Shown in pieces: positions 9,033 to 35,040 of a DNA stretch of 64,000 nt. This DNA is from Dehalococcoidia bacterium (GTDB lineage: Bacteria > Chloroflexota > Dehalococcoidia > Lucifugimonadales > UBA1123): positions 130,866 through 194,865 of the forward strand of contig OY762210.1 of assembly GCA_963665255.1 (NCBI GenBank), given 5' to 3'. The position numbers and the translations under genes are program-made. Under the pieces are notes generated by a model. It made no database searches. It saw nothing but the letters and a program-made list of their open reading frames with translations, and had not been told where the DNA came from. Position 1 is the first letter of the stretch. Every line of letters begins with the position of its first letter.

Positions 9033-10358
9033 ATGTCGCCTGCCCTGATAGTCATCTACGTCTTCGTCAGTCTGGCCCTGCTCGGCACCCTGGCCCTGGC
9101 GCTGCCGTTCACTCACACCTCGGGCGGCGGAGCGCGCCACCTGTTCGTCTCAGCTTTCACCGCGACCTCTGCCATAACGGAGACCGGCCTGGCCGTAGAG
9201 GACACCACGACCTATTGGACCACCAGCGGCCAGATCGTGCTGGCGGGGATCATCTTTGTGGGTGGCCTGGGTTTCATGACCCTGGCCACCTTCGCGCTTG
9301 TCCTTCTGGGTCAGCGCATCTCACTCTCCCAGAGATTGCTGATCAGGGAGAGCTATGGAGGAGAGAACGTCGGCTTTGGCCGGGGTGGGATCGTCCGCAT
9401 GGTGATCGGGGTTGCCTCGTTCGCAGTCGCCGCACAGGTGCTGGCCTTCGTAGTACTGATCCTCAGGCTGTGGTGGGTGGACGACCTGACTCCGCATACC
9501 GCGGTCGAATCTCTCTTCAGGGCCGTCTCCGCGTTCAATAACGCCGGGTTCTCCATTGCCCCACAGGGAGGGCGCTTCAGTTCGGACTGGACCGTAATCG
9601 GCGTAACCGCCCTGATGGTCTTTCTCGGCGGAATTGGCTTCCTGGTGCTGTCGGACATAGTCACCCGTCGCAGGTTCGGACGCTTCAGCCTGACGACCAA
9701 GCTGGTCGTCGCTGCCACCGCCCTGGTCCTGCCCATCAGCATCGGCACGTTTCTCGTGCTGGAGTACAGCAATCCCGGGACACTCGGAGCTCTGCCTCTC
9801 GATCAGAAGGTTGCCACGGCAGCGTTCGAGTCCGTGAGCGCCAGGAGCGGCGGGTTCTCACTGATCGACCACTCCGAGACCGGCCATGCGACCAAGCTGT
9901 GGACGATCGGCGCGATGCTTGTGGGAGGGGCCTCAGCTTCGGCTGCGGGAGGACTCAAGATCAACACGCTGGCCGTGATGTTCATAGGAATCTGGTCAGC
10001 CATCAGGGGAAGAAGGCACGCCTCTGCATTTGGACGGGAGATATCGGAGCGGCAGGTCATGAGCGCGCTGGTGATTGGAGTAGTCGCTGTGACAGTGATC
10101 TTCGGTGTACTCGTATGCCTGAGCATCACGGACAGCGGTCTGGACTCGCTCGACCTGCTCTTCGAGGGAGTATCCGCCTTCGGCACCGTGGGACTGAGCT
10201 CGGGAGCAACCTCGCAGCTTTCGGTACTGGGACAGTGCGTACTCATGCTTACGATGCTGGTGGGAAGACTGGGGCCCCTGACCATTGGCCTGGCCATGGC
10301 CCAGGGCCCCGAGGTGGAGCAGTACCGCCTGCCGCAGGAGTACGTGGCCACGGCGTGA
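9033..10358 (+). CDS. TrkH/KtrB-family potassium uptake membrane subunit
   Basis: MSPALIVIYVFVSLALLGTLALALPFTH...FTATSAITETGL..., with repeated pore-loop motifs (SAFNNAGFS, SARSGGFS, SAFGTVGLS). I chose the ATG at 9033 because the family normally starts just before TM1. The ORF track start at 8919 would add 38 non-homologous residues over the leader. Confidence 0.85.
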   Translation: MSPALIVIYVFVSLALLGTLALALPFTHTSGGGARHLFVSAFTATSAITETGLAVEDTTTYWTTSGQIVLAGIIFVGGLGFMTLATFALVLLGQRISLSQRLLIRESYGGENVGFGRGGIVRMVIGVASFAVAAQVLAFVVLILRLWWVDDLTPHTAVESLFRAVSAFNNAGFSIAPQGGRFSSDWTVIGVTALMVFLGGIGFLVLSDIVTRRRFGRFSLTTKLVVAATALVLPISIGTFLVLEYSNPGTLGALPLDQKVATAAFESVSARSGGFSLIDHSETGHATKLWTIGAMLVGGASASAAGGLKINTLAVMFIGIWSAIRGRRHASAFGREISERQVMSALVIGVVAVTVIFGVLVCLSITDSGLDSLDLLFEGVSAFGTVGLSSGATSQLSVLGQCVLMLTMLVGRLGPLTIGLAMAQGPEVEQYRLPQEYVATA

Positions 10359-27783: not shown

Positions 27784-28610
27784 CGAGGAGCGAGGAAAGA
27801 GGAGTGAGGAAAGAGAGGTCGGAGGCAGCCACGATCGTTCGTCCTGAGCTTGTCGAAGGGTCATCTGCAGACCATCACGACTTCGTCCTGGAGACCTCAG
27901 AGATCTCCAAGCACTTCGGTGCCGTCAGGGCCGTGGACCAGCTCTCCATATCCATTCCCAGGACCGGCATGACGAGCATCGTCGGCCCGAACGGCTCGGG
28001 CAAGTCGACGCTTGTGAACCTTCTCAGCGGCACGCTGCCCCTGGACGGCGGAATAGTCATCATTGACGGCGTCGGCCTAAGGGTCGTGAGGGCGCACGAG
28101 ACGCCGGGACATGGCATCACGCGCACCTTCCAGGAGGTCAGGCTGTTCGATCAGATCAGCGTCTGGGACAACATCCTGGTGGTGCTGACCGAGAGGCATC
28201 CGTTCCGCGCGCTGATGGAGCGGGGCAAGCAGAGCCACCGTGAGAAGGCGCAGAACATCCTCGAGAACGTCGGCATGTGGGAGAAGCGCGACTCGCTTGC
28301 CATGGACCTCTCATACGGCCAGCGCAAGCTGCTTGAGATAGGTCGCGCGATGGCCCTCGAGGTCCACACATACCTGTTCGACGAGCCGTTTGCAGGTCTG
28401 TTCCCACAGATGCTGGAGCAGGTCAAGGACATCATGAGACTCATGCGCGACGAGGGACGCTCCATCATCTTCATCTCCCACAACATGGACATCGTCCGGG
28501 AGCTGACAGACCACCTGATCGTGCTCGACAGCGGCAGGCTTCTCGCAGAGGGAGACGTCACAGAAGTCCTCGCCAGCGATGAAGTGATACAGGCATACCT
28601 GGGGACGTAG
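27780..28610 (+). CDS. ABC transporter ATP-binding protein (LivG-type) with N-terminal extension
   Basis: ATG at 27780 overlaps the livM-type stop (ATGA). Walker A GPNGSGKST, signature LSYGQRKLLEI, Walker B YLFDEP. The ~35-aa N-terminal extension includes the REP-derived RPELVEG. Confidence 0.85.
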   Translation: MTRSEERGVRKERSEAATIVRPELVEGSSADHHDFVLETSEISKHFGAVRAVDQLSISIPRTGMTSIVGPNGSGKSTLVNLLSGTLPLDGGIVIIDGVGLRVVRAHETPGHGITRTFQEVRLFDQISVWDNILVVLTERHPFRALMERGKQSHREKAQNILENVGMWEKRDSLAMDLSYGQRKLLEIGRAMALEVHTYLFDEPFAGLFPQMLEQVKDIMRLMRDEGRSIIFISHNMDIVRELTDHLIVLDSGRLLAEGDVTEVLASDEVIQAYLGT

Positions 28611-30410: not shown

Positions 30411-30614
30411 CTACTTCGCTTCGCTGTCGGCCTCGAAGCCAGCGGGACGATGGGTGCCGTCACAGAAGGGCTTGTTCTCGCTCTGACCGCAGCGGCACAG
30501 CGTTACCACGTCTCCCTCGACGGAGTACTCGTTGCCCTCGGCATCGACGATCTTGAAGTCACCCTGTACCAGTAGTGGGCCGTTCACCCTGGGCGTAATT
30601 GATACATCTGCCAT
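30411..30614 (-). CDS. CDGSH iron-sulfur domain protein
   Basis: 67 aa. ...LCRCGQSENKPFCDGTHR... is the CDGSH [2Fe-2S] motif. Confidence 0.85.
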   Translation of the reverse strand: MADVSITPRVNGPLLVQGDFKIVDAEGNEYSVEGDVVTLCRCGQSENKPFCDGTHRPAGFEADSEAK

Positions 30615-30668: not shown

Positions 30669-32720
30669 TCACACGCCCAGACGCTGTCTGATCGCAGTCG
30701 TCAACTCAGGCACTATCTCATTCCAGTCGCCGAGTATTCCGAAGTCGGACGCTCGGAATATCTGCGACCTCGCACTGTTGTTGATCGCGACGATCGTCCC
30801 CGACCGCTGTATCCCGACCGTGTGGTTGAACGGCCCGCGCAGCGCGACCGCAACGTACAGCTCCGGCGCGACTGCCTTGCCGGACAGCCCTATCTGGTAC
30901 TGGCGCGGCAGCCATCCGAGGTCGCACACGTCCCGGGTCGTGCCTATGGACGCGCCAAGCGCCGACGCAAGCTCGCGTATCGGCCCGAGGTTCTCAGGCC
31001 CGCCGATGCCCATGCCGACTGACACCACCCTCGCCGCTCGCTCAAGCTCTGCGCCCTCTGCCGACTCGTCCGACACGCTTCTCAGCACCCTGACCCCTGA
31101 CGCCTCGACCGTCCCGACGTCGATCCGGTTGACCACCGGCTCGATCGACTCGTCCGGCTCGCACGCCGTCAGGATGCCGGGTCGCACCGTCGCCATGTTG
31201 GGGAGCGTACGCGACAGGATTGGCGCGACGATGCTTCCCCCGAACGCCGGCTTGAGCTGCGAGAGCCGCCCTTCGTCGTCTATGTCGAGCCCAACGCAGT
31301 CGCCGGTGAGTCCGAGCTCCAGTCTGCCGGCCACCCTCGCTGCCAGGTCGCGCCCGTTGGCAGTGGACGGCACCAGCACTGCGAACGGCGACTGCGCTTT
31401 GATCGCCGCCGTCAACGTCGCAGTGTGAGCCTCGGTGTCGTAGTCTGCAAGTCCTGACCCACCCGCGATGTGCACCGTGTCAGCACCGTACGCAGTCAAC
31501 TGCCGGATGCGTCCATCGTCGTCGTCCCCTATCAGCACGGCCTCGACGTTGGTGCCTATCTGCACCGCAAGCTCTCGCGCCCGTCCGAGAAGCTCCAGCG
31601 TAACGGGCCGCACCTCTCCGCCGATGACCTCCGCGACCACCCAGATCGCCCCCTCCGCTCGCCCTGAGCCTGTCGAAGGGGCCTGTCCTGAGCTTGCCGA
31701 AGGGCCTTGCTCCAGCCTCGGCCCACGGGCCACCCCCGTTCGTCTTGAGCCTGTCGAAGCGGCCTGTCCTGAGCCTGTCGAATGACCTTGCTCCAGCCTC
31801 GGCCCCCTGGCCACTACCGTTCGTCTTGAGCTTGCCGAAGCGGCCTGTCCTGAGCCTGTCGAAGGGCCGAACACCCCCCGCTCTTCGAGGAACTCCATCA
31901 TCTGGGCTACTGCTTCCGCTGGCGGGAGGTCGCGCACGACCGTGCCGAGTCTCGTCGACTCCAGGGAGAATATCTCGTCCACCCATGTCGGAGAGCCGTC
32001 CAGCCCGAACTGCGACATGTCGTCGGTCAGGTCAGCGGCGGTAAGCTGCTCTATCGGCCTGGATGCAGCCTCCGCCATCGCCTCCCGTCTCGGGTAGACC
32101 TCCTCTGCCGCGCCGTCCGTGATGGTCACCAGCGCGGGCATCGGGCACTCAAGCTCCTGGTAGCCCTCGTCAGTCAGCCGTGTGGCCGAAATCGAGCCCG
32201 CCTCAGGGTCCATGTCGAGCTTCGATACCGCCGTGATCTGCGGAACCCCGAGCATCTCGGCGATCTCGGGCCCGACCTGCCCGGTCTCCGCGTCCGTGCT
32301 GTTGCGTCCGCAGATGACGAGGTCCGGCTGCTCACGCTCGAGGGCCAGTGCCAGTGCACGTGACGTCGCCAGCGTGTCCGAGCCGGCGAACGCGCGGTCG
32401 TTGAGGTGTACAGCACGGTCCGCCCCCATAGCCAGCGCCTGCACAAGCGCGTCGGACGCCTGTGGCGGCCCCATCGTGAGCGCAACGACCTCGACCTGTC
32501 CTGAGCCTGTCGAAGCAGCCTGTCCTGAGTTCGTCGAAGTGGCCTGTGCTGAGCCTGCCGAAGCATGCTCCCCCTTGAGTCGCACAGCTAGCGACAGCGA
32601 CAGCACGTCGTATGGGTTGACCTCATTCGGCACACCCTCGCGCACAACACGCCGTGTCTCATTGTCGAACTTGAGCATCGAGACAACAGGCACCTGCTTA
32701 ATGCAAACAGCGATCTTCAT
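30669..32720 (-). CDS. Electron transfer flavoprotein beta-alpha fusion (EtfB-EtfA) joined by repeat-derived linker
   Basis: ATG at 32720 behind GGAGG. N-terminal MKIAVCIKQVPVVSMLKFDNETRRV... is EtfB. After the linker, AIWVVAEVIGGEVRPVTLELLGRARELA...YVAVALRGPFNHTVGIQRSGTIVAINNS is EtfA with its FAD region. There is no stop between the halves. Confidence 0.85.
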   Translation of the reverse strand: MKIAVCIKQVPVVSMLKFDNETRRVVREGVPNEVNPYDVLSLSLAVRLKGEHASAGSAQATSTNSGQAASTGSGQVEVVALTMGPPQASDALVQALAMGADRAVHLNDRAFAGSDTLATSRALALALEREQPDLVICGRNSTDAETGQVGPEIAEMLGVPQITAVSKLDMDPEAGSISATRLTDEGYQELECPMPALVTITDGAAEEVYPRREAMAEAASRPIEQLTAADLTDDMSQFGLDGSPTWVDEIFSLESTRLGTVVRDLPPAEAVAQMMEFLEERGVFGPSTGSGQAASASSRRTVVARGPRLEQGHSTGSGQAASTGSRRTGVARGPRLEQGPSASSGQAPSTGSGRAEGAIWVVAEVIGGEVRPVTLELLGRARELAVQIGTNVEAVLIGDDDDGRIRQLTAYGADTVHIAGGSGLADYDTEAHTATLTAAIKAQSPFAVLVPSTANGRDLAARVAGRLELGLTGDCVGLDIDDEGRLSQLKPAFGGSIVAPILSRTLPNMATVRPGILTACEPDESIEPVVNRIDVGTVEASGVRVLRSVSDESAEGAELERAARVVSVGMGIGGPENLGPIRELASALGASIGTTRDVCDLGWLPRQYQIGLSGKAVAPELYVAVALRGPFNHTVGIQRSGTIVAINNSARSQIFRASDFGILGDWNEIVPELTTAIRQRLGV
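31663..31868. repeat. 81-bp tandem repeat, about 2.5 units, forming the EtfB-EtfA linker
   Basis: Units start at 31663, 31744 and 31825. Each is built from CCTGAGCCTGTCGAAGG-type motifs. At 27 codons per unit they stay in frame and encode (G)PSTGSGQAAS..SRRT.VARGPRLEQG. Confidence 0.85.
32495..32566. repeat. 24-bp tandem repeat x3 inside the EtfB half
   Basis: cctgtcctgagcctgtcgaagcag / cctgtcctgagttcgtcgaagtgg / cctgtgctgagcctgccgaagcat. Encodes SAGSAQATSTNSGQAASTGSGQ inserted in EtfB. Confidence 0.8.
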
Positions 32721-32824
32721 AGATGTTTCGCCTCCGGGTACTTGGCGAGAGGACATGGACGAATCCTCGCCCTTGAATCCGTCATTCCCGCGAACGCGGG
32801 AATCCAGGGGGATGGGTCGAGGCA

Positions 32825-33085
32825 CTACCCGCCCCGAATGCGCTCCTGAACACGCTCCCTGAATCCGGCAGGAGCCCCCGACGCAGCAGTCGAGCGAAGC
32901 ATGTCGATCGTAGCCCTCATCGTCTCGATGAACGCCGTGCACGGACCGCACCGCTCAAGGTGCGACCTGATCCTGGACGACTCCCCCGAGCCGAGGTCGC
33001 CGTCGATGAAGTCCGAGGACGCCACCCTAACCTCGCCGCAGTCGAGCTCGCGTCCCCTGAATAGTCTGACCAGTCGTGAAATCAT
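32825..33085 (-). CDS. Small zinc-binding anti-sigma factor (ZAS / zf-HC2 type)
   Basis: 86 aa. DCGEVRVASSDFIDGDLGSGESSRIRSHLERCGPC fits C...H-x3-C-x2-C. No TM segment. Confidence 0.6.
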   Translation of the reverse strand: MISRLVRLFRGRELDCGEVRVASSDFIDGDLGSGESSRIRSHLERCGPCTAFIETMRATIDMLRSTAASGAPAGFRERVQERIRGG

Positions 33086-33119: not shown

Positions 33120-33370
33120 CTCTATTCCAACCCAACTTAACCGTCAACACAATTCCCCTCTCCCAACGCCCCCCACCGTCATTCCGGCGAAGGCCGGAAT
33201 CCAGAGGCACTCAACCATCCATGGTTCTGCACACTTAAATGCAAGCCCACCTCTAACAGCCACTCTCCCCCCTCTCCCACAGCCACTCTCTCCCCTCTCC
33301 CACCGTCATTCGCAGCCCCCTCTCCCACCGTCATTCCCGCGAAAGCGGGAACCCAGAGGGGCGGAGGATG
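33120..33370. repeat. Cluster of short palindromic REP units (CATTCC[CG]GCGAA[AG]GC[CG]GGAA[TC]CCAG type and CT-rich units)
   Basis: Hairpins at 33179-33208 (cattccggcgaaggccggaatccag) and 33330-33360 (cattcccgcgaaagcgggaacccag). Related copies lie near 32780, 34940, 39901, 45022 and 55014. Confidence 0.75.
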
Positions 33371-33483: not shown

Positions 33484-34041
33484 GTGGCAGAACAGTCCGC
33501 ACAGCACTCCCAGCACTCGGAAAAGCCCCCCGATTTCGAGCAGGTCGTCGAGCAGCACTCAGACCTTGTCTACAACGTCGCCCTCAAGATGATGGGCAGG
33601 CCCGAGGACGCTGAAGAGGTCGCGCAGGAGGCCCTGATTTCGGCCTACAGGGCGTACGACCGCTTCAGGGGAGACTCGAAGATCACGACCTGGCTGTACC
33701 GGATCACGGTAAACGCCGCGCTGATGCGACTGCGCAAGGACAAGAGGGAGAAGACCCTGACACGCACCGGCCTGGAGGACGTCGAAATACCCGACTGGTC
33801 CGACACGCCCGACCGGTTCGCCTCGAACTCCGAGCTAGGCGACAGGCTGCGCGAGGGCATCGCGATGCTCCCCGAGGACTTCAGGGCCGCCGTCGTGCTG
33901 AGAGACGTCGAGGGCCTGACCAACGCCGAAGCCGCCGACGCCCTCGACATCACCGTCTCCTCCTTCAAGTCGCGCCTCCACCGCGGCCGCGTCCTCCTCA
34001 GAAAACACCTCGAAGAGTACCTCAGCCTCACCCGCACCTAA
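33484..34041 (+). CDS. ECF-type RNA polymerase sigma-70 factor
   Basis: 185 aa. Region 2 is DLVYNVALKMMGRPEDAEEVAQEALISAYRAYDRFRGDSKITTWLYRITVNAALMRLRK. Region 4 is LPEDFRAAVVLRDVEGLTNAEAADALDITVSSFKSRLHRGR. Confidence 0.9.
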   Translation: MAEQSAQHSQHSEKPPDFEQVVEQHSDLVYNVALKMMGRPEDAEEVAQEALISAYRAYDRFRGDSKITTWLYRITVNAALMRLRKDKREKTLTRTGLEDVEIPDWSDTPDRFASNSELGDRLREGIAMLPEDFRAAVVLRDVEGLTNAEAADALDITVSSFKSRLHRGRVLLRKHLEEYLSLTRT

Positions 34042-34799: not shown

Positions 34800-35040
34800 G
34801 ATAGATGCTTGCGCCTCCCCCCATACGTTCACCCTGAGCCTGTCGAAGGGCCTCCAGATCAAGTCCCGAACGGAGCGAGCGACCAACCAACAGACCCCCT
34901 CACCCTTGACGGTCTTACAGGGGTAGGTATTCACAAACCGTTATTCCCGCGGAAGCGGGAACCCACGAAGTGGCTCGCCGTTCGGCAATCCAGGGGCCGG
35001 GGGTGTCCTTCGACAAGCTCAGAGCCTGTGCCGGACTTGA
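34800..35040. repeat. REP cluster
   Basis: Contains GTTCACCCTGAGCCTGTCGAAGGG (34827-34850), GGGTAGGTATTCACAAACCGTTATTCCCGCGGAAGCGGGAACCC, and TCCTTCGACAAGCTCAGAGCCTG. Confidence 0.75.

Follow-up and report, generated by a model that had tools for sequence, protein, structure and literature searches.

The electron-transferring flavoprotein (ETF) gene etfBA lies in a 64,000-nt window of a Dehalococcoidia bacterium genome (assembly GCA_963665255.1, contig OY762210.1, positions 130,866 to 194,865 of the forward strand), and very probably encodes an ancestrally fused ETF into which 24-bp units of a dispersed repeat family entered late and in frame, as tolerated, nearly neutral passengers of permissive loops and not as the cause of the fusion. 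A sequence-only reading of the window had proposed that the repeats joined separate etfB and etfA genes and were domesticated as a flexible linker. Of that reading, the in-frame fusion and the origin of the Ser/Gly/Thr/Gln-rich peptides in dispersed repeats were borne out, while the causal role of the repeats in the fusion and their domestication were not.

One open frame encodes EtfB and EtfA

The single open frame of etfBA encodes, as first proposed, EtfB and EtfA in one polypeptide of 683 aa. Pfam placed the ETF domain (PF01012) twice, in two separate stretches, and ETF_alpha (PF00766) over positions 1-81 of 81, with E-values of 5.7e-77 and 5.9e-26. NCBIfam models of the EtfB type matched aa 1-281 and those of the EtfA type aa ~357-680. 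By its domain content (an EtfB-type ETF domain, the EtfA N-terminal ETF domain and ETF_alpha) the protein is an electron-transferring flavoprotein. The frame starts at an ATG (MKIAVCIKQVP) with a GGAGG 10 nt upstream. An alternative, longer frame opens at a GTG at 32951 and takes in the tail of the upstream gene as well as the repeat-rich spacer; we placed the start at 32720 because all orthologues begin with MKIA. Coding scores were positive on both flanks of the repeat arrays and the frame stayed open throughout. The features of the locus are collected in Table 1.

Table 1. Features of etfBA, its repeat arrays and its neighbourhood (window positions; aa, residues of the 683-aa protein)
Feature	Position	Strand	Evidence
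etfBA, 683-aa open reading frame, EtfB part then EtfA part	30669..32720	-	stop at 30669-30671; Pfam, PDB matches, AlphaFold2 model
EtfB-like part, aa 1-~282, ends ...MEFLEERG	31875..32720	-	5ol2_B 1.3e-41, 4kpu_B 1.8e-40 over aa 1-280; NCBIfam EtfB-type models
EtfA-like part, aa 357-683, domain I and ETF_alpha FAD-binding domain	30672..31652	-	Pfam ETF 359-535, ETF_alpha 558-638; 5ol2_A 2e-69 over 358-676
Site 1, three 24-bp A-type units in frame, aa 53-76, ASAGSAQA/TSTNSGQA/ASTGSGQV, EtfB loop	32493..32564	-	Tandem Repeats Finder; empty in closest genome
Expanded EtfB-EtfA linker, aa 286-355, [A A'] N [A A'] N [A A']	31656..31865	-	Tandem Repeats Finder, orthologue alignment
81-bp periods of the linker	31785-31865 and 31704-31784; half period 31656-31703	-	
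Native linker core, distal copy, aa 329-339, GVARGPRLEQG, holds R332 and G333	31704..31736	-	invariant columns in 95 homologues; confident in AlphaFold2 model
CDGSH iron-sulfur protein gene, 67 aa, directly downstream of etfBA	30411..30614	-	Pfam zf-CDGSH 3.8e-22
zf-HC2 (anti-sigma type, ZAS) gene, upstream of etfBA	32825..33085	-	gene context
Hairpin module of a second dispersed repeat, ATTCCCGCG-TT-CGCGGGAAT (CCCCTGGATTCCCGCGTTCGCGGGAATGAC)	32784..32803	-	sequence; in 104-nt spacer 32721-32824
ECF (extracytoplasmic function) sigma gene, divergent	33484-34041	+	
Intergenic 17-mer core copy (others at 27843, 35007(-), 38723, 55056(-))	34833..34849	+	motif search

The fusion in relatives

Sequence comparison indicates that the EtfB-EtfA fusion is ancestral and widespread in this bacterial group, and that it is older than the repeat inserts. 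A database search limited to proteins of similar length returned more than 3300 matches; ETF and ETF_alpha share one chain in all 120 of the matches listed, whose modal length is 611 aa, whose identity to the window protein goes down to 57% and whose named members are Dehalococcoidia or other Chloroflexota. Using a six-frame search of 30 related genomes, we found both halves in one stop-free frame in 18 of 18 congeneric genomes, and the fused frame also in at least four other families of the order (f5, f9, f10 and f12). Orthologues free of repeats have a native linker of ~30 aa (for example ERGVFDGKSSSRSGGVARGSRLERGPQGAIWV), and repeat-free native linkers were confirmed at the DNA level in L005, L006 and L007. 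The R-G pair at the core of this linker (R332 and G333 here) was invariant across 95 homologues.

These comparisons contradict the proposal that the repeats created the fusion, since repeat-free fused orthologues of ~611 aa occur in every congener searched and in other families, and the units are restricted to a young clade. The comparison with orthologous etfBA loci that had been suggested as a check gave relatives that are fused without repeats, and no split genes for this orthologue.

A second Etf paralogue, ~34% identical, is present as a 613-aa open frame in the same genome (G000:C1:2063006-2064640), and many congeners have the same arrangement. Other relatives carry it as two separate frames, for example of 274 and 373 aa in G020 and of 274 and 385 aa in G022. 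As this paralogue is fused in some genomes and split in others, etfB/etfA fusion or fission has occurred more than once in the order.

Anatomy of the repeat inserts

Both in-frame blocks described from the sequence (81 bp x 2.5 and 24 bp x 3) were recovered by Tandem Repeats Finder, the 81-bp period at 31665-31865 with 90% matches and a score of 325, and the 24-bp period, three copies long, at 32495-32565 with 74% matches. The linker holds two kinds of 24-bp unit, A (CCTTCGACAGGCTCAGGACAGGCC, translated on the coding strand as PSTGSGQA) and A' (approximately CCTTCGACAAGCTCAGGACGAACG, PSTSSGRT, with the form ASxSSRRT in the window). Unit A' is the reverse complement of the genome-wide consensus CGTTCGTCCTGAGCTTGTCGAAGG. 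A third element, N, is the native core of 33 bp, read as (x)VARGPRLEQG. With 48 bp of repeat units and 33 bp of native linker, the 81-bp period arises from tandem duplication of native sequence flanked by repeat units. Eight of the 81 positions distinguish its two full copies, which are therefore no stutter of identical sequence. Repeat-derived sequence makes up 144 of the about 225 nt of the linker, and all units inside etf are in direct orientation. The linkers of relatives are arranged as [A A']N[A'], [A']N[A A'] or [A']N, or lack units altogether. The arrays also yield long shadow open reading frames in other frames and on both strands between 31468 and 32044 (FDRLRTGRFGKLKTNG..., PEPVEGACPELAEG... 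and VLSLSKRPVLSLS...), which could be mis-annotated as genes.

Site 1, in EtfB, carries one to three units in 17 of 121 homologues and is empty in the closest representative genome, G006, where the protein reads GEH-GT-EVVAL. When the filled site of the window was compared with the empty site of L002, 72 bp replaced 6 bp and no flanking duplication was visible; neither a target-site duplication at site 1 nor a target sequence shared by the four insert sites was found when we searched for them. Nor did the 24-bp unit show the terminal inverted repeats of a miniature inverted-repeat transposable element. Relative L003 reads GEH-QV-EVVAL at site 1, and its CAGGTC corresponds to the end of a unit, so that this 'QV' is probably the remnant of a unit deletion. 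The fourth site, in the EtfA loop at aa 424, has one or two units in ten relatives and none here.

A different palindromic or hairpin repeat module, GAGCCTGCCCCGGACTTGGTCCGGGG (EPAPDLVR(G) / EPAPYSIR), is nested in the A' unit of the linker in L003 (genome G005) and in the orthologues P0008, P0010 and P0014. The composite of A' and GAGCCTGCCCCGGACTTGGTCCGGGG is also seen in intergenic copies, which indicates that the repeat modules are mosaic.

Timing and turnover of the units

In a maximum-likelihood tree of 47 orthologues, built with the insert columns excluded, every repeat-bearing orthologue fell into one clade of 21 sequences (support 98/97). A length insert was present in 19 of the 21 clade members, and a repeat-type insert in 0 of the 26 sequences outside it. 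Within the clade, 8-codon units (PST[G/S]SGQA-like) occupy four fixed sites with zero to three units each, in numbers that differ between sister sequences: the inserted residues at the four sites amount to 22/35/15/0 in the window protein (P0001), and to 0/8/7/0 and 6/8/0/0 in its nearest neighbours P0003 and P0004. This distribution is that of units being gained and lost recently and still, unlike what a fixed, domesticated segment would display.

Structure and likely function

We built an AlphaFold2 model of the 683-aa protein with 95 homologues (mean predicted local distance difference test score, pLDDT, 81.3; predicted TM score, pTM, 0.83). The model superposes on solved ETFs with TM scores of 0.86 to 4kpu_A and 0.83 to 4kpu_B. 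Its pLDDT drops below 50 exactly at aa 66-72, 288-326 and 342-351, that is, at the repeat units, and the remainder folds as an ETF. The distal copy of the native linker core is predicted with confidence (aa 331-340, mean pLDDT 83), whereas aa 291-320, which include the duplicated copy of the core, score only 26-28. The inserts of site 1 fall between helix 36-60 and strand 77-83 of EtfB, and in general the insert sites are compatible with the fold, as low-pLDDT loops between secondary-structure elements that leave the core intact. In the model, the units form disordered, low-confidence loops, and the ETF fold that they surround is a normal one.

Against bifurcating ETFs (5ol2, 6fah, 7koe and 4kpu), each half obtains roughly double its score against canonical ones (1o94 and 1efv): the EtfA half gave 238 bits to 5ol2_A and 122 bits to canonical 1o94_D, and the EtfB half 146 bits to 5ol2_B and 80 bits to canonical 1o94_C. 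On this basis the fused ETF is more likely a two-FAD enzyme of the bifurcating type than a canonical enzyme with FAD and AMP, an assignment made by relative similarity to solved ETFs, which reflects similarity and not activity.

The dispersed repeat family

The etf arrays are built, as had been noticed, from a motif dispersed through the genome. Allowing up to two mismatches, the motif CCTGAGCCTGTCGAAGG, the 17-mer core of the family, matched 11 times in the window, against 0.01 matches expected from shuffled sequence. Genome-wide, this core gave 144-157 matches in 142 clusters. We counted a cluster as coding when it had an open frame of at least 64 codons on both sides and a positive coding score. 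By this test 131 of the 142 core clusters failed and 11 passed, in a genome that is ~85% coding according to a crude open reading frame caller. The family is short, high-copy and predominantly extragenic. Its dispersed form in this genome is CGTTCGTCCTGAGCTTGTCGAAGG, with 59 exact 24-mers, all of them outside etf, and ~105 copies at up to two mismatches. For the variant ending in ...GGACAGGCC (SGQA, A-type), five of the seven genome copies at up to three mismatches are in etf; other genomes of the order contain the SGQA variant in dispersed form. The etf arrays were considered as the source of the dispersed family and ruled out on the 59 exact consensus copies found elsewhere and the presence of the family across the order.

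The 24-bp unit spans eight codons and is stop-free in five of its six frames. It has no self-complementarity, and some intergenic copies have an inverted partner ~20 nt away. Among congeners the core varies from 0 copies (G003) to 250 (G013), which suggests bursts and purges or horizontal spread, and the family is found in most other families of the order. Copy number does not predict etf inserts: G013, with 250 copies, has a linker without units.

At least three of the 11 clusters that passed as intragenic are chance look-alikes in native sequence (DLDKLRSEG in a PanC-like protein, and FDKLWTE in two paralogues), and one more was discounted as lying in a doubtful open reading frame. Once the look-alikes were discarded, units remained in frame in about five genes outside etf. 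In-frame units were seen in genes for a HerA-like ATPase (715021), a Rad52/22 protein (743914) and a 706-aa double ABC ATPase (G000:C1:3473584), the last with the unit HPSTGSGD in the linker that joins its two ATPase halves; further in-frame core copies are at G000:C1:767355-767437 and 272287. One 258-aa open reading frame carries two units read in the opposite-strand frame, PEPVEG / RPELVEG. The peptides encoded by the repeats (FDKLR, LSLSKD, PELVEG, PSTSSG and STSSGQA) gave only chance matches in the literature.

A search for a Y1/RAYT transposase (PF01797) gave no match in G000, the genome of the window, which is 98% complete; the same search matched 6 of 14 named control genomes. The lack of a PF01797 match in their own genome led us to reject filing these repeats as a repetitive extragenic palindromic (REP)/RAYT system.

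Origin of the inserts and competing explanations

The history that we favour would begin with an ancestral fusion giving EtfB and then EtfA in a single chain, bifurcating-like by sequence and paired with a CDGSH gene. Long after this fusion, in one young clade of the genus, 24-bp units of a dispersed and mostly intergenic family would have entered the gene, read in the frame P-S-T-G/S-S-G-Q-A, at four permissive places: a surface loop of EtfB, both sides of the conserved linker core and a loop of EtfA. With a unit that is divisible by three in length and free of stops in five of six frames, arrays could grow and shrink without breaking the gene, presumably by slippage or unequal recombination. 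In this genome, an additional tandem duplication of two units plus the native core would have given rise to the 81-bp period. The inserts would most likely be tolerated, length-variable selfish or slippage DNA in disordered loops.

That the fusion was made by repeats which landed between independent etfB and etfA genes, abolished the stop and start codons and became the linker, is highly improbable. The largely repeat-derived linker of this gene and the fact that ETF subunits are separate in most organisms would agree with such an event, but repeat-free fused orthologues with a conserved ~30-aa linker are found across the genus and in other families, R332 and G333 are invariant in 95 sequences and the units occur only in the young subclade. 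Somewhat less improbable, though still unlikely, is an assembly artefact, in which the extra 81-bp copy or other unit counts would be wrong and the true gene shorter or split in two. The genome is a single-contig, repeat-rich, long-read metagenome-assembled genome (MAG), and the 2.5-copy state is found only here among 121 homologues; against this, the two 81-bp copies are not identical, the frame is open with positive coding scores on both flanks, and independent assemblies of the relatives P0002, P0003, P0004 and P0005 have in-frame arrays at the same sites.

We give a slightly better, but low, chance to domestication, by which selection would favour longer or adjustable flexible segments that, for example, adjust how the FAD-carrying domain II swings or how partners dock. 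The inserts keep to four recurrent sites and are read every time in one hydrophilic frame, and in the AlphaFold model of a natural single-chain ETF from Sulfolobus acidocaldarius an extra third loop joins the mobile domain II to the base, so that the linker may matter mechanically (PMC12042025). However, purifying selection would by itself produce the frame bias, by eliminating frames that are hydrophobic or contain stops, and units differ in presence and number among nearest relatives, being completely absent from P0018, P0023 and site 1 of P0003. The sequence-only claim of domestication thus finds no support: with zero to three units per site between sister sequences, and units that model as disordered, tolerated insertion or slippage fits better than a selected function. 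A bolder version sees in the arrays an evolvable 'length dial' that would act on the loops and on the tether between the subunits, with gain and loss of units selected to tune domain-II motion or the docking of CDGSH or another partner. We regard this too as improbable; were it true, adaptive variation in the linkers of Chloroflexota proteins would regularly stem from intergenic selfish repeats.

Several observations weigh against late, passive insertion as the full account. The etfBA gene holds two of the ~11 intragenic clusters and four sites in one gene, a hotspot beyond what pure neutrality explains and one for which domestication would account. Some 611-aa orthologues contain the unit PSTSSGRT in the linker with their length unchanged, for which simple insertion is not a sufficient explanation. 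In this genome the SGQA variant hardly occurs outside etf, so that some units may have spread within the gene. No mobilising enzyme turned up in the PF01797 search of G000. The exact number of units is the one given by the MAG assembly, and the flavin content and bifurcation of the fused ETF are predictions made by sequence similarity.

Gene neighbourhood

The pairing of etfBA with a CDGSH gene is kept in L013 (CDGSH at 9891-10094) and in L014 (8965-9168), whose etfBA product is 64% identical and whose other neighbours differ from those of the window. Gene order makes the CDGSH [2Fe-2S]-type protein a candidate dedicated redox partner of the fused ETF. No acyl-CoA dehydrogenase (ACAD), FixCX or ETF:quinone oxidoreductase (ETF-QO) gene lies adjacent to etfBA.

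Upstream, the hairpin module listed in Table 1 fills the spacer that separates the zf-HC2 stop codon from the start of etfBA. In L013 the two genes are 3 nt apart, compared with 104 nt here, which indicates that the repeat uncoupled a tight gene junction. The spacer hairpin could act as an attenuator or mRNA stabiliser. A tandem repeat of 23 bp x 3.1 (ACAGCCACTCTCCCCCCTCTCCC) lies at 33256-33328, between the zf-HC2 and ECF sigma genes.

Comparison with known systems

The correction of the repeat-made fusion to an old, conserved single-chain ETF removes a tempting story and leaves a clean, datable case, from beyond Rickettsia, in which the gene of an important redox enzyme carries dispersed intergenic repeats in its reading frame. 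Close relatives offer both empty and filled sites, and the repeat-mediated duplication of a conserved linker core is visible. For annotation, Ser/Gly/Gln-rich segments and shadow open reading frames (FDRLRTG, PEPVEG and LSLSK) can be recognised as repeat-derived, and for engineering, the orthologues constitute a natural linker-length series of single-chain ETFs.

The single-chain ETF is already a known and characterised kind of protein. SaETF of S. acidocaldarius, a natural EtfB-to-EtfA single chain, was purified and showed the behaviour of a bifurcating ETF (Das et al., JACS Au 2025; PMC12042025). The same authors report that both archaea and bacteria have monomeric homologues (PMC12042025). 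Like SaETF, the window protein has EtfB and then EtfA in one polypeptide and, by sequence, appears closer to bifurcating than to canonical ETFs. Unlike SaETF, it carries repeat-derived inserts, and its gene lies beside CDGSH and ZAS-type anti-sigma genes and not beside ACAD, FixCX or ETF-QO genes. It is possible that the two fusions arose independently. The best sequence and fold matches of both halves are to heterodimeric bifurcating ETFs (A. fermentans 4KPU, C. difficile 5OL2 and T. maritima EtfABCX 7KOE), which differ in being two polypeptides without the loop and linker inserts.

The in-frame repeats are to be likened to the Rickettsia palindromic elements (RPEs), dispersed repeats found in frame inside Rickettsia genes (Ogata et al. 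2000, 2002, as reviewed in PMC10969869). As with RPEs, the 24-bp family is intergenic and also in frame in unrelated genes, adding peptide at fold-compatible positions. RPEs, however, are ~100-150 bp long and palindromic, with one insertion per site, whereas the unit described here is a non-palindromic 24-mer that forms tandem arrays of zero to three units varying between close relatives, partly in the manner of an intragenic minisatellite, and its host is a free-living Chloroflexota MAG. With the REP/RAYT elements of Proteobacteria the family shares its short length, high copy number and overwhelmingly intergenic location, and some of its copies form inverted pairs able to make hairpins; it differs from them in the lack of a PF01797 match in a 98%-complete genome, in the modular mosaics that its units form and in the uniformly direct orientation of the etf copies.

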